Below, piece by piece: positions 654 through 21,917 of a DNA stretch of 64,000 bases. Position 1 is the stretch's first letter. The number at the start of each line of letters is the position of its first letter. Source of the DNA: a virus (lineage: Duplodnaviria > Caudoviricetes); the IMG/VR virus record IMGVR_UViG_2671180233_000001, positions 21,041 through 85,040 of that record. One strand, written 5' to 3'. The position numbers and the translations under genes are program-made. The notes under the pieces were generated by a model, which saw only the letters and a program-made list of their open reading frames with translations, did no database searches and was not told the origin of the DNA.

Positions 654-1519
654 TGGCCTCAAAAAAAAGTTATTCTGATGAAGTTTGGAACATGCTTCAC
701 TTGGTATGGGAGTCATCACCTAAAATCACATGGCAGGCTCTTGCTGATCAGGTAAGTGAAAAACTTGGTCGTGAAGTCCCTGCATCTTCTGTAATTCGTC
801 GCCGTGCGATTTCAGAGGGCTGGAAGAAAAATATCTCATCTTTGGTTGGCAAAGATGCTCAATCCCTTAATGATGAAATTGAAAAACAGGGTGGTCATAA
901 AAACTCTCATGACAATGACCCTGTCAAATCTGACACTTCAAAAAATGACAGTGAATGTCAAAATGACATTAAAAATGACAATCAAAAGTCAAAAAAATCA
1001 AAAACAAAAGATAATGACATTATCGTATTTGATAAAGAATCTGCTGGCCGGGAAAAATTAATCCACGATATCAAAGAAAGAAAACTCACAGCGGCAAAGG
1101 TCGTTCGTAAAACCCGTAATAATTTGGCAAAATTAAGCCATTTCATTACAGATACTTTAGATAGTCTTGGGGGTGTCAGAGATGAATTGCAGTCTATGGA
1201 TGTGATGACCGCTGGTGAAGCAGAGATCAATGCGATTAAATTTAAAATGTCCGTTACTTCACAGATGATCGAGCAAAACCTTAAACAGAGTATTACCATT
1301 GCCAATGTTGCTAGAACCGAGGCCATGTTCTGGGGGCTTGAAGTTGAGGACCTAAAAGATCAGAGCGAGCAGGAAGCCAAGCGCACGGCTGTTATGAATC
1401 AATCTACTGCCAAGTTGGAAGAAGCCAAACGACAAATGAAAGAGAAGAAGAAAGAAGCATTCAAAAGGCAGCTTGAATACATTGAAATGGGCAAGGAAAT
1501 CGAGGAAAATGGACAGTAG
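653..1519 (+). CDS. Probable terminase small subunit (PacA-like)
   Basis: N-terminal HTH ending IRRRAISEGWKK, typical of small terminases; coiled-coil C-terminus; internal TGACA repeat cluster. Confidence 0.6.
   Translation: MASKKSYSDEVWNMLHLVWESSPKITWQALADQVSEKLGREVPASSVIRRRAISEGWKKNISSLVGKDAQSLNDEIEKQGGHKNSHDNDPVKSDTSKNDSECQNDIKNDNQKSKKSKTKDNDIIVFDKESAGREKLIHDIKERKLTAAKVVRKTRNNLAKLSHFITDTLDSLGGVRDELQSMDVMTAGEAEINAIKFKMSVTSQMIEQNLKQSITIANVARTEAMFWGLEVEDLKDQSEQEAKRTAVMNQSTAKLEEAKRQMKEKKKEAFKRQLEYIEMGKEIEENGQ
910..1019. repeat. Cluster of TGACA/TGTCA pentamers, candidate pac site
   Basis: Eight copies at 910, 922, 931, 946, 956, 964, 976, 1015 plus TGACC at 916. Confidence 0.55.
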
Positions 1520-1717
1520 ATTAAGTAATAACCATATGTTAAGTACATTATCAAAAATAGTTATCAACTTTGATAAATTTGATTTCTAAAGATTTCTGAT
1601 CATAGAATTAAGATTCTAAGACAAGTTCTATAATTATTAAGTTAGGTTGATAGTTCCTTTGATAAGTTGATACACATCAATATGTAATAATTAATTTAAA
1701 TTTATGGAGTATTTACT

Positions 1718-2362
1718 GTGATAGTCGAGAAAATAAAACAAGCAAGCATGGTAGACTTAATATCAATAATTACACCTATAATACTTATTATTGGTTTAAT
1801 GAATAAAATTGGTATTTATACTTCTAATGAGATTAATTCAAGTTGGATTTTATCTTTTTTTTCGCCTATTGAATTTATGATTTCCGATCTCGAGGTGTAC
1901 ATATATTATGCTATAGCAATATTTTATTTAGAAAAAGTTATATTTACAACCGATAGAAGTTTTATGGTTGAGTTTTTAAATGCAAATCTTATGTTGATTT
2001 CCTCATTTGGTGGACTTTCTTTATTATATTTTTTTCAAGAAAAATCAATTAGTACAATATTTAATACTTATTTGTATATTGCATTAAGCTTAAATGGAAT
2101 AGGAATACTATTTCTCAGCAAAAAATTCGGTAAAATAATTGGCTTAATTTTAATACTTATTGTTCCATACAAATTGGGTGTTGCACATGCACATAAACTA
2201 TCAACTAAAAGTTTGCCAATAGTTGAGATTACAGACTCACATCAATGGTTCTTACTGGATAAATATTCTGACAATGTAATTCTTATAAATAAATCTGATA
2301 AAGAAAATAGATTTAAATTTATTGATATAAAAGATATAGACTCTGTTAAACAAGTATTTTAG
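1718..2362 (+). CDS. AT-rich multi-pass membrane protein (moron)
   Basis: About five hydrophobic segments; GGAG RBS before GTG start; very low GC. Confidence 0.7.
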   Translation: MIVEKIKQASMVDLISIITPIILIIGLMNKIGIYTSNEINSSWILSFFSPIEFMISDLEVYIYYAIAIFYLEKVIFTTDRSFMVEFLNANLMLISSFGGLSLLYFFQEKSISTIFNTYLYIALSLNGIGILFLSKKFGKIIGLILILIVPYKLGVAHAHKLSTKSLPIVEITDSHQWFLLDKYSDNVILINKSDKENRFKFIDIKDIDSVKQVF

Positions 2363-2369
2363 ATTTTAA

Positions 2370-2473
2370 TAGACCTCTTGCGTAAATCAAATCTTGACCA
2401 GTAAGATTCTATGTTCTATGAGAGATTGTGAAAGTTGAAAATCGATTGAAATAACACTTTCGCAAGAGGTCTA
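2370..2473. mobile_element. 104-bp MITE-like element
   Basis: Perfect 13-bp terminal inverted repeats TAGACCTCTTGCG / CGCAAGAGGTCTA, no coding capacity. Confidence 0.65.
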
Positions 2474-2564
2474 ATTTATTTTATTAAATCAGAATTTATT
2501 AAGTACAGATTCAGTTTGATTTTAATTTAAAATAAGAGTTAAGTTATAATATTAATTGTCGTTT

Positions 2565-2759
2565 CTATTCCTTAAACGTCTCATACAAAGCCTGTTGAAC
2601 AGCATCAACCCTTGATTTGCAGGCTTTATATGCTTGCATGGATTCTTCAACGATTTTCATCAGGTTATCAATGTCTGGTTCTTCCTGAGATTCAAGTAGG
2701 GCAGCATTTTTCTTTAAAATTTCGTAGCCTTCTTTAAAAGTAAGTTCTTTATTGGTCAT
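2565..2759 (-). CDS. xseB: Exodeoxyribonuclease VII small subunit
   Basis: 64-aa helical hairpin (LTFKEGYEIL...IDNLMKIVEES...CKSRV) overlapping the end of xseA. Confidence 0.85.
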   Translation of the reverse strand: MTNKELTFKEGYEILKKNAALLESQEEPDIDNLMKIVEESMQAYKACKSRVDAVQQALYETFKE

Positions 2760-4029
2760 TGTCGATTACCTTGTTAACTGTTGCTTGGATCTGACCATCT
2801 TGCATTTCAATTGAAATATCAGTGCCAGAAATTTGGTGAATTGATCTGATAGCTTTGCCGTTACTGCGTACGATTCCATAGCCTTTTGCCAGTACATTTC
2901 TAGGATTCTGTAGTAGTGTTTCACGCATTAAGGATTCTACGTTGCTATTAGCGATTTTGATCTGTTGCTGGGCAAAATAATGTGTCGTACCTTTCATCAA
3001 CTCCAGGTTTTTGGTTGCCATTGAAATTTGATTTTGGACCACGGTTTTGATTGTACCGATCAATTGCTCATTCTTATTCTGGTAATTGGCAATATGATGC
3101 TGGGAAAGTAACTTTATGGACTGTATGAAAGTAATGACTTCCTGAGCACGATCAGCGATTTGATTGCGTATACCGGCAATTACCTTGCTGGGCGTGTCGA
3201 AAGAGCGATGTGCAATTTCATCTAATATTGTCCGGTCTTTCTCATGACCAATGCCGACCCAGATTGGCACAGTTCGTTTGCACAATAAAGCGGCAAGGTC
3301 ATAGTCATTCAGATACGCCAAATCATTGACTGCACCGCCTCCGCGAATAATCACAATCAGGTCTGGTGGTGTACCATCATAATCTTTTACCCATTGGCGC
3401 AAGCCCGAGCTTAAGGACTCAATAATGCTGACAGCAGCTGTATTGCCTTGAAATGTGGCGGAATGATATACGAAATGACACACACCGGCTTTATCTAAAG
3501 CATCAGCATCTTTTTTGAAATCACCCAAGCCGGCGGCATTTTGTGGAGCAATGACCAAGACATTTTGAATATCAAATGGGACAGGGAGAAGCTTATTTTT
3601 ATTAATTAAACCTTCTTCCGTCAATCGAGCGACAATTTGCTGGTATCGTTTTGCAATATCGCCGAGTGTAAAACTGGAATCGATGTCCTCAATATTAAGT
3701 GAAAATCCATATTGTGGGTCAAATCGTGCTTTGACTTTAATGAGAACGTTCAAATCTTTGGATAATTCAATACCGCTTTCACGTTGAAATCTTAAAACAA
3801 TCTTACTTGTATGTTTCCAGATCGTTGCCCTACAACTTGCAATAACCTTATCTGTATCTTCTTCTTTTTCTGCTAATTCCAGATAATAATGTCCACCTTT
3901 TACACTTAGATTCCGGATCTCGGCTTTAACCCATACAGCTTCATCAAATGAAATCTGAATGACTTCCTTAATCGCGCTAAGGTATTCAGTTAATGAGAGT
4001 TGTTGATCTGGCATGTGTGTTGATGGCAT
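2749..4029 (-). CDS. xseA: Exodeoxyribonuclease VII large subunit
   Basis: OB fold (WVKAEI..GHYYLEL), DLIVIIRGGG, GIGHEKD, TPS and LAKGYGIV motifs. Confidence 0.92.
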   Translation of the reverse strand: MPSTHMPDQQLSLTEYLSAIKEVIQISFDEAVWVKAEIRNLSVKGGHYYLELAEKEEDTDKVIASCRATIWKHTSKIVLRFQRESGIELSKDLNVLIKVKARFDPQYGFSLNIEDIDSSFTLGDIAKRYQQIVARLTEEGLINKNKLLPVPFDIQNVLVIAPQNAAGLGDFKKDADALDKAGVCHFVYHSATFQGNTAAVSIIESLSSGLRQWVKDYDGTPPDLIVIIRGGGAVNDLAYLNDYDLAALLCKRTVPIWVGIGHEKDRTILDEIAHRSFDTPSKVIAGIRNQIADRAQEVITFIQSIKLLSQHHIANYQNKNEQLIGTIKTVVQNQISMATKNLELMKGTTHYFAQQQIKIANSNVESLMRETLLQNPRNVLAKGYGIVRSNGKAIRSIHQISGTDISIEMQDGQIQATVNKVIDNDQ

Positions 4030-4156: not shown

Positions 4157-6220
4157 GTGCCTTTTATGGCTATAGGTGATAGTGGTTTACAATATGATAA
4201 CCAAGGCTTTCTGATTGGTGCGGTTCAGCAAAAAGTTGAAACTATTGATAAGAATATTCTGGAAATCTTAAAGCTGCTTAGGCATGACACAGTAGAACAA
4301 ACACAGCGATTTAAGATTAGCCGGTTGCAGCGTGCGATGTATGAAGCTAACTCGGCTAAGAACATTGAAGATATTATAAAAGATGCAACACAAATATTAG
4401 AAAATCAGTCTAAACAACAGATCAAAGCCATTTCTAATATGGACTCATCTAAATCTGATCAAATTGATCCAGTCCGAAATAATACTAATCAAACTAAACC
4501 TGTGGAATCAACAAGAGACAATACTCAACAGTCTGATAGAAAAAGGGACAGTAACGGTCGTTTTGTTGCTGGTGATGTTCCTGAGAGTGATGAAACTGTA
4601 GACAAACGCAATCGTGATGATAAAGGGCGATTTGTCCCTGGCACCTCAACAACAATTTCAAAGTTTGGCGATATAGTTGGGAAATTTGGACAGGCAGTAT
4701 CTGGATTAGGTACAGATGCACAAGGTTTTGATCCAACGGTTGATGCAATAAATGAACTAGGTACCGTTTTGTCGCCAGTTAAACGAATGGCTGGAATAGT
4801 ATTTAAGCCTTTGACCGGTTTGGCGAAGATGCGTAAACGTTCTGAACCATTGCCGAAAGAGCAAACTGATCATAATAAGAAACAACTTAAGATTTTGCAG
4901 CGTATCGCAGATCGCACGGGCAATAATCAGGGTGGCTTATTATCCAAACTATTGGGATCGGGTGGTGGTTTACTTGGCGGATTGTTGGGTAAAGGAGGAA
5001 AAGTATTATCCAAGATATTAAAGTTTGGTAAAGGATTACCAATTGTTGGTGGATTGCTCAGTGCCATAAGTTTGATGGATTGGGGGGATAAATCTACTGA
5101 ACAGAAAGGAGGTGCAATAGGCTCTATTGGGGGCGGTGTTGTTGGAGGTGTTTTAGGATCGGTTCTTGGTCCAGCCGGTACAATTGTAGGTGCTGGTGTT
5201 GGTGCTTGGATTGGTGACAAGCTGGGAACAACAGTTGCACCTTATTTCAAGAATTGGACTGATTCTTTGATCAAATCAGATTTAGGTCAAAAAATCGTAT
5301 CTATCTGGGATGGATTTGTAGATACAATTTCTGGGTGGTTTGATAAGGCTTGGGGCGGACTAAAATCTGGTGCTGGTGCAATTGGAGGTATGTTTAATGG
5401 TGCCTGGCAAACTGTTAAAAATATAGGCAATAAAGGACTGGATACCATTGGATTTAATGACTATAAGGCTCTAGAGGGAGGAAATGCCCAAGAAAAGACC
5501 ATGGCTTTATTGAGACAACATGAAGGTTTTCGTGAAAAAGCATATTGGGATGTGAATGCATATCGAACTGGTTATGGCAGTGATACTGTAACAGATAAGA
5601 ATGGAAATGTTCGTAAAGTTACTTCTAATACAAAGGTTTCTAGGGAAGATGCTGAGAGAGACTTGTTAAGACGTTCAAAAATTTTTGCAGCCCAAGCAAG
5701 GCGTAAAGTTGGTGGTGAAAATTGGGATAAGCTACCAGATGATGCGAAAGCAGCTTTGACTTCGGTTGCCTACAATTACGGAAGTTTGCCAAAAAGTGTT
5801 ACTAAAGCTGTTCAAACTGGGGACTTAAAAAGAATTTCTAACTCTGTTCAATCTCTAGGTGCACATAATAAAGGCATTAATAGAAAAAGACGTAACCACG
5901 AGTCTTTATTGATTCATAATGCTAAAGATAGTTCTGTTTCTACATCTCAAGTTCAGCATGGTTTATTGGCATCGACAAATAAAACAAATACTCCATTTGT
6001 TGCAAAGGCAGATACTATGCTTGCGACTGCTAACCCAGTAAATTTGAATAACCATACAGCTAAAGCAAATACACCTAAGATTGAAACAGCCAAAACTAGA
6101 TTAAATTCTACCGATCCACAAAAAGTATTGGTGGTAAATCAGTCAGATGGTAGTATTACCCAAAATTTAGGCGATCGTGCTTTAGCACACGCAATTACAG
6201 GGGGAATTGGGGAAAGATGA
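4157..6220 (+). CDS. Tape measure-like protein with lysozyme-fold domain (P1 Sit-like)
   Basis: Gly-rich amphipathic region; LLRQHEGFREKAYWDVNAYRTGYG lysozyme motif; two RDxxGRF repeats. Confidence 0.75.
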   Translation: MPFMAIGDSGLQYDNQGFLIGAVQQKVETIDKNILEILKLLRHDTVEQTQRFKISRLQRAMYEANSAKNIEDIIKDATQILENQSKQQIKAISNMDSSKSDQIDPVRNNTNQTKPVESTRDNTQQSDRKRDSNGRFVAGDVPESDETVDKRNRDDKGRFVPGTSTTISKFGDIVGKFGQAVSGLGTDAQGFDPTVDAINELGTVLSPVKRMAGIVFKPLTGLAKMRKRSEPLPKEQTDHNKKQLKILQRIADRTGNNQGGLLSKLLGSGGGLLGGLLGKGGKVLSKILKFGKGLPIVGGLLSAISLMDWGDKSTEQKGGAIGSIGGGVVGGVLGSVLGPAGTIVGAGVGAWIGDKLGTTVAPYFKNWTDSLIKSDLGQKIVSIWDGFVDTISGWFDKAWGGLKSGAGAIGGMFNGAWQTVKNIGNKGLDTIGFNDYKALEGGNAQEKTMALLRQHEGFREKAYWDVNAYRTGYGSDTVTDKNGNVRKVTSNTKVSREDAERDLLRRSKIFAAQARRKVGGENWDKLPDDAKAALTSVAYNYGSLPKSVTKAVQTGDLKRISNSVQSLGAHNKGINRKRRNHESLLIHNAKDSSVSTSQVQHGLLASTNKTNTPFVAKADTMLATANPVNLNNHTAKANTPKIETAKTRLNSTDPQKVLVVNQSDGSITQNLGDRALAHAITGGIGER

Positions 6221-7134
6221 ATAAAAAAATACTTTTAGGTTTGATATTGGGTTGCTTAAATTCATTTGCGGTTGGGAGCTCAAATGATATTGACCAGAGA
6301 TTTTATAATAATATTTTATCAAATTTAGATAATCCATATAGAATCATTACAATCAAAAAAGAATCTTTAAACAATGTTGAAAGAACTGTAATAAATTATG
6401 CTATTCGGAACTTTAAAAAGGATTTTGTAGAGTGTAATGGTAAATCATATATTCGTGGTATAGATAAGGTTTATTATGTTGTTGATTATAAGCCAACAAT
6501 TTTATTTCGAACATTTCCTACAATCAATAAAGCTGATAAGTTGAATGGCGTGGTGTGGCGCGGGGATATATTAATATTCTTATCAGGTAATAAAGGAGAA
6601 GGAGTAGCCCAAGAAGTAAAAGCTACCGATCATCAGTCTTCTAAATGGCAAGATATGAATAGACTTAGGTTGAGTCAATTTGGAAATTTTGAAGATGTGT
6701 ATAGAGGAACCTTAGTTTTTTATAAAAATGAAATACGTACATATTATGGGGATGGGATAGGTAACACTAAATCTAATGATAATAATCAGTTGGTATGTTC
6801 AGATATTAATCAACTACTGATGCCTGAGCAAAAGCATGAAACTAATATTGAAAGTGAAAAAAAATTAAATTTGGATGGTAAAGTCAGCTGGAGAACTTAC
6901 CCAAAAATAAGGCTTTCTCAGCCAGATTTATTAGGCGTAACAAACAGTAATGTGATAGTTCGTGTTGATGTTGACGTAAAGGGGCGAATAAGTGCAAAAA
7001 TTCTTGAAACCAGTGGCGATGATCAGGTTGATAAAAAAATTGTAAAAGCTGTTGAGGCTGCAAAATTTAATAAATACACTGAAAATGGAGAGCCTGCAGC
7101 ATTTTATATAGAATTACCATTTAATTTAAGTTAA
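6217..7134 (+). CDS. Exported protein with C-terminal TonB_C domain
   Basis: Signal peptide; C-terminal YP...VIVRVDVDVKGRI..KILETSGDDQVDKKIVKAV...F. Confidence 0.75.
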   Translation: MNKKILLGLILGCLNSFAVGSSNDIDQRFYNNILSNLDNPYRIITIKKESLNNVERTVINYAIRNFKKDFVECNGKSYIRGIDKVYYVVDYKPTILFRTFPTINKADKLNGVVWRGDILIFLSGNKGEGVAQEVKATDHQSSKWQDMNRLRLSQFGNFEDVYRGTLVFYKNEIRTYYGDGIGNTKSNDNNQLVCSDINQLLMPEQKHETNIESEKKLNLDGKVSWRTYPKIRLSQPDLLGVTNSNVIVRVDVDVKGRISAKILETSGDDQVDKKIVKAVEAAKFNKYTENGEPAAFYIELPFNLS

Positions 7135-7301
7135 GAGATGGCAAAGCAATAACCTAGCTTAAAACTGATGTTTGATTGAAGCTGGAAAATCAGTTTCAAG
7201 CCAAAATTTCATTGCTAAGAGTGGATATGTTAAATTTGAGGATTCATTTATTAATTAAGAGAAAGTTATCTTGGTTTAGTCACTCAGAAAACTCTTAGTT
7301 T

Positions 7302-7413
7302 TGTTATAATATAGTAATTTTAAATTTCTAGCTTTATTTTTTCAATTACAAATAAAATAGCAGGTAGGCAAACCATTCCCGCTTAGTCGCTGTTAAAAAG
7401 CTAGAAATTTAAA
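7302..7413 (+). promoter_or_regulatory. Extended -10 promoter followed by a long stem-loop leader
   Basis: TGtTATAAT at 7302-7310; perfect 17-bp inverted repeat 7319-7335 / 7397-7413. Confidence 0.55.
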
Positions 7414-7454
7414 CCTATGGGATATCCACAGGTGCAATTTTGATAGGGTGTTAA

Positions 7455-8474
7455 ATGACTTCTGAAAGCAATAGAACCGGATCTCTTGGAACGAACTATG
7501 TGGAGAAAGTCCTACTCAAATGGGGATGGGGATTTCAACCTATTTCACAAGAAAATGATGATGGATTTGACGGCATTATATATATCCGATCGAAACATTC
7601 GAATCCAAAAGATCCTGAGAATCAAAGTAAGCAATCATGGGCTTTCACAGGTGGGTTAATTCATGTACAAGTGAAAAGTGGAAATAGCTATATCAGTAGC
7701 CAAAATAGAAACGAGATAAAACTTAAGATAAATAAACTAGCTCAAAAGAAAGAAATATGGAAAAAATCTCCAATTCCATGTGTTCTAATATTTTTTTTTG
7801 AAGATGAAAATGAGAATGAATATTCATATTGGGCTGATCTAAAATCAAATGAATCATATTTTGAGGGTAGTAGTAGCATTATCAGTATCCCCAAAAAAAA
7901 TAGATTTTCAAAATCACCAGAATGCAAAGGTCCTTTAAGACGCATAGCAAGGAAACAAGGGGATTATAGTGATAAACATTTGATTGATATGGTAAAATCA
8001 GATACCTTAAATAGTATTTTGCCATCAAGTCTTAAAGGGAATATAAACTCCTCTTTAAAAAGCAAAGCTATTGAGTTTTACCAAAAATGGAAATTGAATG
8101 GTGCAATTAACCCTTACTTTGGTCAAGTAATAATTAACAGGACCGGATGGAGTCATATCACTCGCAAAGGCCGCCCTATAGCAAGAATTGAAGCCAGTTT
8201 TAATTTGTTACCTATTGCAGCTAGAATTATAAATGATGTATCCACATGGCGTATGCTAACGCCCATGAGAAGATATCAAAATAGAAAGGATGGTTATGTT
8301 TGTTATACAGATTTTATTGGATTAACAGCAAAGGTTGTTTTAAGAATGAGAAATTCCACCGAAGTTATGGTTGTATTAAAAAGAGAAACAAGATTCAAAG
8401 AAAGCGAAGGTGAAAATGATCCTGAAACCAGACTCTGGTTTTATACAGTTTACGAGCCAGGACGTGGGAAGTAA
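7455..8474 (+). CDS. DUF4365 (PD-(D/E)XK) nuclease-like domain fused to an LPD3/BECR-like domain
   Basis: N-term ENDDGFDGII...HVQVKSG; C-term KAIEFY..INPYFGQVIINRTGWSHI..R...LLPIAARII...WFYTVYE. Confidence 0.65.
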   Translation: MTSESNRTGSLGTNYVEKVLLKWGWGFQPISQENDDGFDGIIYIRSKHSNPKDPENQSKQSWAFTGGLIHVQVKSGNSYISSQNRNEIKLKINKLAQKKEIWKKSPIPCVLIFFFEDENENEYSYWADLKSNESYFEGSSSIISIPKKNRFSKSPECKGPLRRIARKQGDYSDKHLIDMVKSDTLNSILPSSLKGNINSSLKSKAIEFYQKWKLNGAINPYFGQVIINRTGWSHITRKGRPIARIEASFNLLPIAARIINDVSTWRMLTPMRRYQNRKDGYVCYTDFIGLTAKVVLRMRNSTEVMVVLKRETRFKESEGENDPETRLWFYTVYEPGRGK

Positions 8475-8475
8475 A

Positions 8476-8573
8476 TTGCGGCGGTACAATCGCGCTCAGA
8501 CTGCCCCAGACGTGATATATAATCACCGGTACCAGAAAAGGTCTGGCTCCTCTATTGTGCGTGTACCGCCTTT
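8476..8573 (-). ncRNA. Putative structured small RNA convergent on the DUF4365 gene
   Basis: Outer stem GGCGGTACA(8480-88)/TGTACCGCC(8562-70), inner stems CCAGAC/GTCTGG and GTGAT/ATCAC; minus-strand TTGACA-N16-TATTAT at 8605-8578. Confidence 0.55.
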
Positions 8574-8667
8574 GCAAATAATACTATAAAACTCTAAAGT
8601 GTCAATGAGTTAATTTGATTATCAAAGGTTTAAGTGGTGGTGAAAATCCACCAACCACACCAAATTT

Positions 8668-8696
8668 AAAGTCCGTACTCATATGCGGGCTTTTTT
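8668..8696 (+). terminator. Rho-independent terminator
   Basis: Hairpin GTCCGTA...TGCGGGC followed by T6. Confidence 0.6.
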
Positions 8697-8863
8697 ATTA
8701 TTGGAAAAAGGAATTTAGGCTTTTAAATGGTTGAAAGATATTTCTTGAGTCCAGTTAAAAACATCTAATATTTCGTGTTATTTCACTGAAATTTATATAA
8801 TATAAAGTTCAAATATTTAGATATTTTACAAATTTTCATTTAAAAACGTATAGTGAGATAGTT

Positions 8864-9328
8864 GTGAAAATAAAATTAGATTGGCAAGAGCCATTGCAAT
8901 TAGGTTCTTTTACAGATGATGTAAATTACCATGATGAATTGGAGTTAAATGAGATTCCAGAATCAGCAGGCATATATATTTTTTATCGTCAGCATGGTGA
9001 AACTCAACAAGCATTGTATGTTGGTCAGGCACAAAATTTAAGAAGCCGATTAAAACAACAATTTAAGTCTTTAGAGTTAATGAAACACATCAAAAATTCT
9101 AAAAAAGGTTCAAAACACCTTGTTTTTGCATTATTAAAAACTCGTTCATCAAATTTAGTGCATGCTTTAAATCAGGCAGAGCGTGGACTTATTACACATT
9201 ATATGGAAGAAAATAAACATGATTTATTTAATAAACGTGGTCTTTATGAAGAATATGATTTAGTAGAATCCATAGGAGAAAATGTACAGCCTCTTATAAA
9301 CATTGAACTATGGGTCTACGCTAAATAA
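8864..9328 (+). CDS. GIY-YIG nuclease family protein
   Basis: GIYIFY...LYVGQAQNLRSRL...E...FN motifs. Confidence 0.8.
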   Translation: MKIKLDWQEPLQLGSFTDDVNYHDELELNEIPESAGIYIFYRQHGETQQALYVGQAQNLRSRLKQQFKSLELMKHIKNSKKGSKHLVFALLKTRSSNLVHALNQAERGLITHYMEENKHDLFNKRGLYEEYDLVESIGENVQPLINIELWVYAK

Positions 9329-20144: not shown

Positions 20145-21917
20145 ATGGGTGCATTAAGCAACGAAGCACAACAACATTTTGACGCACAATCTCAGGCAAT
20201 TGCAACTTGTGCAAAATATTATTTTAGTAATGGTCAAGTCGCTGGTTTCGATAGTATCAGTGTAGAACCTTCAGCACGTCCCGAACCTTTGCAGGCAATT
20301 TTTGATAGCATTGAAGAAAAATACCAAGCCAAGATTGATGATGCTGTGCGCATGGGGATTGAAGCATATCAAAGCCGAAACGGTGGGGAGTTACCGCATC
20401 CGAGCGTGATTGCTTCGGCCTTGAGTGCTGGTAAAAGTGTTGCGGAAGGAAAATATAATCAAGCTATGTTCGATGGCTTGGCACAATTTGATGATATCTC
20501 CAATGGCTCTTATGAACAGGCTGCTGTAGTTCCGGCTATGACTGTAGTGACCATTGCCAATGTCATTGCGAATTCCTTACCAATTGTCGCGATGTTGCCA
20601 AACCCAACCAATTCTGTTCGTGTCCCTGTAGTTGCTGTTCGGTATATGACTGACTCAGCTTTTGGTGCAATGGCACAAGGTGACTATCTGGATGGTGCCA
20701 ACGCAGCTCTACCATACGCCGAAGGACGTTTTGCTTTTGCATTGACTGCTGAAAGTGCTACTCCTAATGTTTATGCGGTGACTGCTCGGACTACATACGA
20801 GGATTTTACTGCAAAAACTCCGAATGAAAATGGTGATTTACTGCCATTTCTTTCAGGCAATGTTTCATTGCGAGTAAATGGTCGTGAATTAGCGCATACC
20901 CGTGGTGATCAAAATCTTTCAGTTGCTAAAGGTTCAGTCAGTGCAACGATCAAACGTCCAGAAATTGAAATTGCTGGTACTACTTTTACATTGAATGCTG
21001 TATCAGTAAATATTGACACACGTACTATTACTGCAACTTTTGATCAGGCATTACCGGCAAATACAGCAATTGAAGTGCATTTGGTTGCAGATTTTGATGC
21101 AAAAGATGGTAGTAAAAAGCATTTGCTGAATCCAGTTGGTGTATCGCTAGAACCAGAATATGACTTAATTCAGTCTGTACCGGTCGTTAACCACATTAAT
21201 GTTTCTTATAACACCAATAATCAGATGGCCAATGAATTAGGTGTTGGTTTTGTGGGTGCGGCATTGGCCGCGATGCAAGGTAAATATTTCCTGGAACAAA
21301 ATGTACGCCTATTGAAAGAAGCAAAAGACCGTGCGAAATATACCAGTGGCGACGGTGCTGCAAAGCGTATCTTCACTTTTGATGCTTCACGCGGGGCTAC
21401 CGGTAATTTAACTGCTGCAATGAATACTACGGCAGATCTTATTCGTGAAATCCTGAAATTCATTCAGTTTGCAAAATTAAAGATTCGTCAGGCCTCCGGT
21501 GGCGCAACTGTCCGATTTGGCCTTTATGTTGGTGATTTGGGGGCTGTATTCTTTAATCAGCTTGATTCAAGCGTATTCACCAAAACTGGTGCTACTGCAT
21601 CATGGGGTGAGATCGTGCGAATCGGTACACTGAATGATGGTACCGATGTTTATCACACACCGACTGCTCAGGGGGTTGTCATTGAAGGTGTGAATGCTGC
21701 CGAAATTATGCTGGTAGGGAATGGTAATGAACCTGCACGTAATCCAATGGTTGGGACCATTACTCAGCCACCAATTTTCCGTGAAGCTAAACCGGATACA
21801 CGGGATATTCAGTTCGGCCTACATGCACAAATGGCTGCGGAATTAAATCCACTTGAGCGATATGCAGATCAAGTGGCACTAATCGAAATGATTAACCTGC
21901 CAGCCCTTGGTGCGTAA
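20145..21917 (+). CDS. Major capsid protein (P1 gp23-like)
   Basis: 590 aa, Ala/Gly-rich, followed by a terminator; N-terminal region rich in FD motifs; RIGTL.DGTDVYH pattern. Confidence 0.75.
   Translation: MGALSNEAQQHFDAQSQAIATCAKYYFSNGQVAGFDSISVEPSARPEPLQAIFDSIEEKYQAKIDDAVRMGIEAYQSRNGGELPHPSVIASALSAGKSVAEGKYNQAMFDGLAQFDDISNGSYEQAAVVPAMTVVTIANVIANSLPIVAMLPNPTNSVRVPVVAVRYMTDSAFGAMAQGDYLDGANAALPYAEGRFAFALTAESATPNVYAVTARTTYEDFTAKTPNENGDLLPFLSGNVSLRVNGRELAHTRGDQNLSVAKGSVSATIKRPEIEIAGTTFTLNAVSVNIDTRTITATFDQALPANTAIEVHLVADFDAKDGSKKHLLNPVGVSLEPEYDLIQSVPVVNHINVSYNTNNQMANELGVGFVGAALAAMQGKYFLEQNVRLLKEAKDRAKYTSGDGAAKRIFTFDASRGATGNLTAAMNTTADLIREILKFIQFAKLKIRQASGGATVRFGLYVGDLGAVFFNQLDSSVFTKTGATASWGEIVRIGTLNDGTDVYHTPTAQGVVIEGVNAAEIMLVGNGNEPARNPMVGTITQPPIFREAKPDTRDIQFGLHAQMAAELNPLERYADQVALIEMINLPALGA

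Follow-up and report, generated by a model that had tools for sequence, protein, structure and literature searches.

This work concerns a gene and its apparent RNA partner as found within a 64,000-nucleotide stretch of viral DNA (positions 21,041 to 85,040 of IMG/VR record IMGVR_UViG_2671180233_000001; Duplodnaviria, Caudoviricetes), with ‘window’ used here for the whole of that stretch. The gene encodes a protein with an N-terminal DUF4365 nuclease domain and a basic C-terminal domain. Directly past its stop codon, and running toward it on the opposite strand, is what is predicted to be a gene for a structured noncoding RNA (ncRNA). As judged from sequence comparison, the nuclease gene has this RNA as a dedicated partner, since every one of the 27 subfamily loci that include downstream DNA possesses it, its helices covary, its pairing is asymmetric between strands, the -10 element of its promoter is fixed in position, and no such pairing has been found described. 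A preliminary description of this DNA, made from the letters alone, had suggested a dedicated RNA ligand, antitoxin, or antisense regulator for the nuclease, and the partnership itself is upheld by the homologues, in which the RNA always directly follows the gene and always is on the other strand.

What this partnership accomplishes is a separate matter. The reading preferred here, at a probability of roughly one half, is that of a type III-like RNA-protein pair, that is, one in which the RNA would keep a DNase silent and infection would free that DNase. The gene, its domains, the structure and strand of the RNA, its promoter, the strict co-inheritance of gene and RNA, and their mobile and defence context all are computed results, and it is with these that the following begins.

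The convergent RNA gene

Beyond the window, 54 loci were gathered, i.e., 24 from genomes, 18 from metagenomes, and 12 from viral contigs. Class Ia is used here to describe the enteric plus Acinetobacter type, which includes the window, and class Ib to describe a distant protein subclass, from which 13 RNA sequences were aligned (alignment A3). Even at loci whose proteins are only about 40% identical to that of the window, the next 100 nt past the stop codon can still be aligned, with unpaired stretches that are near-identical and with helices in which complementarity is kept despite differing sequence. A covariance model, R1, was built from the 13 class-Ib sequences, class Ia and with it the window being absent from its training, and was searched over the window plus the 54 loci (55 sources; 526,445 bases). 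There were 27 matches, one per locus, all on the opposite strand and directly after the gene, at E values of 5.8e-33 to 1.2e-6. One additional locus, L033, ends inside of the gene, and the one extra row returned, on the plus strand at E 0.06, is spurious. The window's own match runs from 8576 to 8468 (58.8 bits; E 1.2e-13), and class-Ia sequences score 34 to 69 bits despite R1 not having been trained on them.

Alignment A3 was made with MAFFT only. In it 95.0% of helix cells are paired, 14 pairs are changed on both sides, versus a shuffled mean of 5.8 and with 0 of 500 shuffles reaching that number, and if partners are slid by 1 to 3 columns then 29-36% of cells are paired. Alignment A4 (24 distinct rows, the spurious plus-strand row included) is instead fitted to R1, and indeed to R1's advantage, with 96.6% of cells paired versus a shuffled mean of 76.2%, 21 of 29 pairs with compensatory change, and slid partners pairing at 30-39%. 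The A4 covariation score is 0.528 versus 0.198 as shuffled, a score that none of 500 shuffles equals.

It is because G-U cells number 63 and A-C cells 3 that the RNA is assigned to the minus strand, with pairing at 96.6% on that strand and 87.4% were the plus strand the RNA. Within the window, the preliminary description had a GC-rich structure beginning 5 nt after the stop codon, and that is what is there: the stop codon is 8472-8474, and a GC-rich self-complementary stretch, in an otherwise AT-rich region, starts with 8480. On the minus strand, the 131 nt of 8470-8600 fold at -40.5 kcal/mol (z -3.14; 1 of 200 dinucleotide shuffles as good). The plus strand also folds better than its shuffles (z -3.67). 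This latter point, together with the position, immediately behind a cargo gene, of an element rich in inverted repeats and the frequent location of relatives beside integrases, would fit there being no RNA gene at all, but instead a DNA-level site (for recombination, attC-like, or a bidirectional terminator) or part of a mobile element. That possibility is very unlikely because of the G-U asymmetry, which implies selection on one RNA strand, and because of a promoter conserved at fixed distance. The element, in addition, travels with the gene through unrelated neighbourhoods, occurring once per locus and not elsewhere, and a U tract follows the closing stem, P1, on the minus strand only, i.e., the plus strand is without a conserved U tract after P1.

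The promoter in question, a minus-strand TTGACA-N16-TATTAT, was part of the preliminary description, where it placed the start site at the base of the outer stem. It is the best sigma-70-like match found between 7100 and 8950, and the predicted start, about 8571, is indeed the first P1 base. The 42 nt found upstream of the R1 match were compared across 23 distinct loci. In 22 of these a TAnnnT is identically placed, its last base about 6-8 nt ahead of the first pair of P1, the only distinct locus without this conserved -10 being L019, a C-terminal remnant. A TTGAC[AGT] is found at 16-nt spacing in 9 of 9 class-Ia loci and an extended -10 (TGn) in 12 of 14 class-Ib loci, with the spacer sequences themselves differing between loci. 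A covarying structure plus a reverse promoter, as the preliminary description proposed looking for downstream of homologues, therefore are both present there (27 of 27 loci, 0 of 500 shuffles, and a -10 in all but one distinct locus).

The RNA, at about 100 nt and with ends put at about 8571 and about 8468, is predicted to fold into a three-way junction, the stem that closes this junction directly adjoining the stop codon (Table 1). P1, or helix 1, consists of 13 pairs, 8 of them with compensatory change and with 97.7% of cells paired. It is the outer stem, 8480-88 / 8562-70, of the preliminary description, and it covaries. That description's stem GTGAT/ATCAC likewise exists, as the tip of P3, a helix of 3 + 8 pairs in which all 8 of the distal pairs display compensatory change and whose basal G-U pair is kept in 21 of the 23 rows with letters. 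Its long-range stem, CCAGAC (8507-12) / GTCTGG (8541-46), by contrast, has to be given up: relatives form instead the local P2 of 8532-8546, there changed to GGCUA/UAGCC, and GUCUGG is fixed in relatives and pairs with CCG(G) at the P3 base. In class Ib (A3) the order of elements is P1, then J12 (ACAAUAGAG..), P2, a CCG.. opening P3, J31 (AUCAGUCUGAGA), and then back to P1. Junctions in the window are 12, 2, and 12 nt in length.

Table 1. Positions of the module's features within the window, with the basis for each.
Feature	Positions	Strand	Basis or remark
Nuclease gene, DUF4365 plus basic C-terminal domain, 339 aa	7455..8474	+	Open reading frame list, positions with stop codon; homologues; full-length conservation
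DUF4365 / DREN-type PD-(D/E)XK nuclease domain, residues 10-154	7482..7916	+	Pfam, PADLOC, Foldseek, invariant columns
Basic C-terminal alpha/beta domain, residues ~200-339	8052..8471	+	AF2 model, charge, profile search
Structured ncRNA gene, ~100 nt, convergent with nuclease gene, ends inferred	8468..8571	-	Covariance model, covariation, strand test
P1 5' strand	8559..8570	-	Pairs with 8480-8493; A-U bulge at 8489-8490
Junction J12, ACAAUAGAGGAG, conserved	8547..8558	-	Alignment
P2 hairpin, CCAGA / UCUGG, loop CCUUU	8532..8546	-	Helix 2: 5 of 5 pairs with compensatory change
P3, base CCG/UGG with conserved G-U pair, GUC bulge, distal stem GUGAU/AUCAC	8506..8529	-	Helices 3 and 4
Junction J31, GGCAGUCUGAGC (consensus AUCAGUCUGAGA), most conserved unpaired stretch	8494..8505	-	Alignment
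P1 3' strand, then U-rich tail 8468-8477	8480..8493	-	Other subfamilies likewise have closing stem plus U tract
RNA promoter: -35 TTGACA (8605-8600), 16-nt spacer, -10 TATTAT (8583-8578)	8578..8605	-	11 of 12 matches
Terminator-like hairpin plus T run beyond RNA gene	8668..8703	+	Sequence scan

The unpaired junction strands are near-invariant, being shared by Gamma- and Betaproteobacteria and by one Acidobacteriota metagenome-assembled genome (MAG). The latter (L019, 2162-2778) has an intact RNA, at 120 bits, next to a C-terminal remnant open reading frame (ORF) of only 164 aa, with an unrelated ORF upstream, and represents either a copy in decay or a form with the C-terminal domain alone. Also considered was whether the 3' part of J12 pairs with the P2 loop as a pseudoknot. 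At least 4 contiguous pairs are possible in 18 of 23 distinct sequences, with triplets that vary (GAG/CUC, AGG/CCU, UGG/CCA), but loop shuffles often do as well (fractions 0.007-1.0), and this pseudoknot accordingly is not established.

Known RNAs do not account for the element. Rfam 15, at gathering threshold over the whole window, yields 0 matches. At E<=10, on 8400-8720 and on 6950-7250 of a second locus (L006), there are sub-threshold rows only, mostly in the plus-strand terminator region, with a single row touching the RNA (snR78, 15.8 bits versus a gathering score of 48). ARAGORN found no tRNA or tmRNA. A hammerhead-like core (CUGAGAG in J31) was rejected, as junctions of 12, 2, and 12 nt do not fit hammerhead junction lengths and as no ribozyme family matches at E<=10. 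Also rejected was a repeat or mobile element, the 131-nt stretch being single-copy in the window's own genome. A scan of viral contigs for the J31 core pattern returned only the L052 contig, already in the set. Beyond the RNA promoter there are a GGTGGTG/CACCACC-type hairpin (8634-8655, plus strand) and, over 8634-8703, weak Rfam rows for Leu_leader, MicC, and DUF3800-I that are far under gathering scores.

Remoter subfamilies, with proteins about 30% identical, are found in Bacteroidota, Marinobacter, Rhodovulum, and others. There R1 does no better than E 0.044, matching P1 only. Past the stop codon, nevertheless, the minus strand displays a long closing stem by that codon, often with a U tract following. 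Folding of that strand in 18 remoter loci gave z <= -2 in 14 and -1.5 to -1.8 in 3, and alifold energies are better on the minus strand for 4 of 5 groups, with the fifth group not aligning and lacking structure on either strand. The very divergent member L063 has the same arrangement. On this comparative basis a convergent, structured element is a family-wide trait, and the remote RNA classes either are too far diverged to be recognised or have been supplanted by others, with only position, strand preference, and architecture in common with the class-I RNA.

At its 3' end the RNA meets the gene. The P1 3' strand plus U-rich tail probably serve as terminator of the RNA, and the tail runs antisense to the final codons of the nuclease gene and to its stop. 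The TGA stop codon of class-Ib genes falls inside of P1. The only terminator-like site on the plus strand in the window (8668-8693; 8668-8703 as listed in Table 1) lies beyond the RNA gene and, if it ends the nuclease mRNA, then the 3' untranslated region (UTR) of that mRNA would be fully complementary to the ncRNA. It is upon this geometry, i.e., an RNA 3' end that abuts or overlaps a stop codon, that of class Ib included, and a sole plus-strand terminator-like site lying beyond the RNA gene, that a purely antisense, type I-like form of control could be built, with the RNA pairing with the mRNA 3' end (and RNase III cleavage following) or else acting via transcriptional interference, and with no protein binding. 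Antisense action has no need, though, of compensatory helices, an invariant G-U pair, or junctions near-invariant across distant hosts. Nor does pairing at a 3' end have much obvious effect on translation, while a conserved and very basic extra domain would be left without other proposed ligand. The protein, moreover, is not the small hydrophobic peptide of type I systems but is of 339 aa, two-domain, and soluble-type. Antisense control as the whole of the explanation, though a serious rival, appears fairly improbable.

The nuclease and its basic C-terminal domain

Residues 10-154 match DUF4365 (PF14280) at E 3.6e-22 (Pfam; 79.3 bits versus a cut-off of 24.3), and the protein also matches the PADLOC profile Aga_REase, which is of restriction endonucleases (REases) associated with prokaryotic Argonautes (pAgos), at E 9.1e-10. 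D39, Q72, and K74 do not vary among the 23 sequences aligned, and the catalytic D...QxK motif, to go by these columns, is kept in the DUF4365 head. With the DUF4365 nuclease TmuRE, the active site is Q62/K64, this being the QxK motif that was mutated there (PMC10810196). A full-length model has two domains (predicted local distance difference test, pLDDT, 81; predicted template modelling score, pTM, 0.50), the N-terminal one of which matches SPARDA DREN-APAZ chains at E 1e-10 (Foldseek; PDB 9qcc, 9qbp, 9vx6, 9jt2). The best local superposition on those chains covers 170 columns at a root-mean-square deviation (rmsd) of 3.7, with longer alignments at rmsd >20. Archaeal Hjc resolvases and EcoRV match the same domain at lower ranks. 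That DUF4365 here is a PD-(D/E)XK-type nuclease domain, as had been stated in the preliminary description, is supported by Pfam, by likeness to SPARDA DREN, and by the invariant D/QxK.

A protein search gave 91 homologues at E<=1e-3, nearly all of about 340 aa and conserved along their full length. Those with names are each a ‘DUF4365 domain-containing protein’, and are from Acinetobacter, Yersinia, Serratia, Enterobacter, Klebsiella, Pseudomonas, and others. Upstream of the gene, a 15-17-bp inverted repeat in the 5' leader (7302-7454; repeat arms 7319-7335 / 7397-7413) is not conserved in 8 other class-Ia loci as aligned. A short hairpin at 7413-7433 (CCTATGGGATATCCACAGG-like), about 25-40 nt before the start codon, recurs in four Acinetobacter-type loci, namely the window, L002, L026, and L027.

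The C-terminal 145 residues fold alone with confidence (AF2; pLDDT 91.8, pTM 0.85). In the window this domain has an isoelectric point (pI) of 10.1 and a net charge of +12, and among relatives (n=28) the medians are 10.2 and +13. Motifs that are kept include NRTGWxHITRxGR...R...S..LLP and WFYxVYE, with R229, G231, W232, H234, T236, R240, R244, S248, and R310 among the invariant residues.

The domain's identity is less readily settled upon. The preliminary description called it LPD3 with a BECR (RelE/barnase-like) fold. No Pfam family matches residues 161-339 in the window, however, even at E<=10 and with the LPD3 (PF18798) model included, and a profile of the domain run against PDB chain sequences has nothing below E 0.18. 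LPD3 is matched in 1 of 28 relatives (Pfam; E 0.0015), is found on 18% of members of the nearest Atlas cluster, and is annotated on 5 of the top 19 BFVD rows (E 0.004-0.06), altogether a remote likeness to LPD3. Of the 50 rows listed by a VIA structure search, 15 (Z 5.5-3.5) are toxins, i.e., RelE, ParE, YoeB, YafQ, BrnT, PfiAT, an unnamed toxin-antitoxin complex, CDI, and a colicin-type RNase, all of which we take to be BECR folds (RelE/ParE, colicin D/E5, CdiA-CT, barnase). This would be a hint, as based on a model, of a BECR-like fold. What stands of the earlier label thus is a set of remote LPD3 signals plus weak BECR-like matches (Z <= 5.5), and what does not is an LPD3 Pfam match in the window. 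Iyer et al. (2017; PMC5512222), in the passages treating LPD domains, give their function as unknown and assign no BECR fold to LPD3.

A profile search identified 313 representative proteins that carry it, of which 20 were scanned for partner domains, the 10 of typical length and the 10 longest. All 10 of typical length possess DUF4365. Among the 10 longest are found CHAT (3), TIR (3), SIR2_2 (1), and EAD11 (1), several of them keeping DUF4365 in between. These partners are typical effector domains of immunity, and such fusions, as read from domain architecture, are what usually marks a domain for immune sensing or regulation that is set upon swappable effectors. Representatives of 146-173 aa (P0095, P0096, P0100, P0102, P0092) consist of the C-terminal domain alone, and are solo forms or short-contig fragments. 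Three scans of viral contigs with P0196, P0224, and P0123, which are among the relatives fused to TIR, SIR2, CHAT, or EAD11, turned up no relative, and a scan of 401 genomes in the family of G001 gave 2 matches, one of them new.

These fusions invite a reading in which the RNA does not silence but instead is a permanent cofactor or sensor subunit, one that, with the C-terminal domain, the nuclease (or TIR, SIR2, or CHAT in relatives) would require for its activation upon a phage cue. The likeness would be to the pAgo plus guide that serves the DREN-APAZ of SPARDA, with a fixed, folded RNA here in the place of the guide. Joining of one C-terminal domain to TIR, SIR2_2, CHAT, EAD11, and DUF4365 is consistent with that, as is the match of the N-terminal domain to SPARDA DREN, as are junction strands so highly conserved as to suggest a tertiary fold or a ligand or protein site; DUF4365, TIR, and SIR2 also all are members of the set of partners of short-pAgo APAZ (PMC10810196). 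The RNA, on the other hand, is without a variable, guide-like segment, with helices and loops alone varying. No Argonaute or APAZ was detected, with the C-terminal half lacking a Pfam match and neighbours being unrelated, and a strong, constitutive-looking promoter along with tight cis linkage would fit an antidote at least as well. An obligate cofactor is likewise seen as a serious rival, though an unlikely one. A broader version can be entertained, if only tentatively and with some doubt, in which C-terminal domain plus folded RNA would be an as yet unrecognised ribonucleoprotein immune sensor mounted on interchangeable effectors (DREN, TIR, SIR2, CHAT), the RNA there being bait, decoy, or aptamer.

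The silencing reading and described systems

Type III toxin-antitoxin (TA) systems combine an RNA antitoxin with a protein toxin in an abortive-infection module. In their classical form (ToxIN, CptIN, TenpIN) the antitoxin consists of tandem repeats found upstream of the toxin gene, with a terminator in between, and is processed by the toxin, an endoRNase. The preferred reading retains the principle of such systems though not their layout. Transcription of the RNA, its binding by the protein, the direction of control, and the anti-phage role are what we infer here, as follows. What would be made, from a strong promoter of its own, is an RNA of about 100 nt that is convergent with the nuclease gene. 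This RNA would bind the basic C-terminal domain, thereby keeping the nuclease silent. A phage that shuts off host transcription, or that destroys or titrates the RNA, would release the nuclease, and the freed nuclease would then degrade DNA, resulting in abortive infection or in the incoming phage being excluded. A second layer of control may come from antisense overlap with the 3' end of the mRNA.

Several considerations weigh against this RNA-silenced nuclease. Unlike in classical type III systems, the RNA is single-copy at each locus, downstream, convergent, and equipped with its own promoter, and there is no upstream tandem-repeat array. Convergent 3'-end overlap could by itself explain an antisense regulatory role, and the swapping of effectors (TIR, SIR2, DREN) also fits an activating sensor such as is seen with short-Argonaute systems. 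Assignment of a fold to the C-terminal domain is weak, with no Foldseek match of its model to PDB at E<=0.001 and with the best VIA row (6cp9_A; Z 5.5, rmsd 3.6, 96 aligned residues) under the tool's caution line of Z 8. One of the 18 remoter loci, L022, displays no structure past its stop codon (z 0.11). Lastly, A4, as fitted to R1, favours R1's structure, a bias of which the MAFFT-only A3 is free.

Among the closest of described systems is AvcID, with which the AvcD deoxycytidylate deaminase is kept off by a small RNA, AvcI, with phage shut-off of transcription letting that labile RNA decay, and which is anti-phage and carried by mobile elements (PMC10511110). One enzyme toxin kept off by one dedicated small RNA is the model that is proposed here; the AvcID toxin, however, is a deaminase rather than a nuclease, and its RNA is apparently unrelated. 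In a Clostridioides difficile prophage, the toxic protein AbiF is neutralised by an adjacent structured ncRNA, RCd22, via direct contact, in cis as well as in trans (bioRxiv 10.1101/2025.04.15.648962). There, too, a prophage-borne protein gene is found next to a structured ncRNA, but AbiF is described as of Abi_2/HEPN type and related to Cas13 ancestors, and RCd22 as having two abiF motifs, whereas here there is a DUF4365 plus LPD3/BECR-like protein and a convergent, three-way-junction RNA without an Rfam match.

The N-terminal nuclease of SPARDA and TmuRE-Ago is a member of the family seen here (Foldseek E 1e-10; QxK), control over an unspecific DNase is exerted by an RNA-dependent partner, and the partner domain is joined as well to TIR and SIR2, the APAZ partners of short pAgos consisting of DUF4365, HNH, SMEK, and REase nuclease domains or instead of TIR/SIR2 (PMC10810196). 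No Argonaute is found, though, among the 4 flanking ORFs of the window or 10 neighbours in 8 other loci, there is no recognisable APAZ, and the SPARDA RNA is a guide whereas here the genome encodes the RNA, which is folded and does not vary where it is unpaired. Divona, from a Vibrio cholerae integron cassette, is a compact, single-gene anti-phage system which similarly has an N-terminal DUF4365 nuclease and has homologues reported near integrases; its C-terminal part is described as crr6 (PF08847), and no RNA partner is mentioned in the portions of the preprint describing the system (bioRxiv 10.1101/2024.07.02.601686). PF08847 is absent from window residues 161-339 (E<=10) and from 28 relatives (E<=1), which sets the two apart by description, the preprint's method possibly being the more sensitive. 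To the LPD3 (PF18798) of phage polyvalent proteins, the C-terminal domain has the remote likeness already noted, with the window's domain missing that Pfam model.

Titles, beginnings of abstracts, and passages from the literature on DUF4365, RNA antitoxins, and Divona yielded no described system pairing a DUF4365 protein with an RNA partner. Along with the lack of an Rfam family, this agrees with the statement in the preliminary description that the pairing was not recognised as a described system. The module would then be an RNA-protein toxin or defence pair unlike the type III layout, SPARDA, or Divona as those are described.

Genomic setting and implications

The window's flanks consist of phage genes, i.e., a tail-associated lysin/tape-measure-like protein plus several PHROG families. 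Four flanking ORFs were scanned, giving Phage_lysozyme, TonB_C, and GIY-YIG, with one ORF lacking a Pfam match. The TonB_C ORF (6217-7134, plus strand; 305 aa) begins like a signal peptide, has a TonB C-terminal domain (PF03544/PF13103), is located between the tail-lysin-like gene and the module, has no PHROG match, and may be a prophage moron. Directly downstream of the module, 8864-9328 (plus strand; 154 aa) is a GIY-YIG ORF (Pfam E 1.2e-5) with weak PADLOC matches to PDC-S14 and to a homing endonuclease, which may represent additional cargo, a further defence gene, or else a homing endonuclease.

In the 8 other loci whose neighbours were scanned, those neighbours vary by locus, with integrases making up 3 of the 10 and with DarT, a UvrD-like helicase, YhcG, GAP1-N1, FRG, and a D5-type primase also seen. 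Neighbours differ between loci, and gene plus RNA therefore are viewed as a mobile unit. To the extent that sequence context can tell, the module is a self-contained, two-part cargo of prophages and of other mobile elements.

Among 151 genomes of the genus, the RNA model is matched in the window's own genome only, in single copy, and in 0 of the 150 others; the protein domain is found in the window's genome and one other. That other copy (L066; G541:C1:370234-373662; 1492-3347) is divergent and split by two transposase-like ORFs (1948-2699) into a DUF4365 part (2760-3347) and a C-terminal part (1492-1827), i.e., it is insertion-inactivated. In complete E. coli genomes a relative is present in 22 of 5426 (‘distant’ search mode), and a megablast of an enteric locus against E. 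coli genomes returned nothing. In RefSeq E. coli the ORF, next to a prophage integrase, is annotated and nothing is annotated over the RNA, where R1 finds it at E 1.1e-17. A blastn of 7300-8900 against a phage collection gave no match.

Annotation as a ‘DUF4365 domain-containing protein’ is such that defence catalogues would count a single gene, where the transmissible unit consists of that gene and of an RNA gene lacking annotation. Should the nuclease be under the control of the RNA, then a new and widespread RNA family, its loci spanning Gamma- and Betaproteobacteria, Bacteroidota, and several MAG lineages, would join the few RNA-protein toxin or defence pairs that are known. That control would also explain how it is that prophages carry a potentially lethal DNase, and the ORF, if cloned alone, could mislead with regard to toxicity or defence. 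If instead it is the sensor reading that is true, then immune RNAs would gain a new class, in which each protein subfamily co-evolves with a distinct sequence class of its own, and there would be a functional parallel to APAZ and short Argonautes in which a fixed, structured RNA stands in place of a guide. As a compact, three-way-junction RNA of about 100 nt it is, in either case, tractable for structure and binding studies. The presence of the same C-terminal domain with TIR, SIR2, and CHAT suggests that the principle involved could be a general one of sensing.

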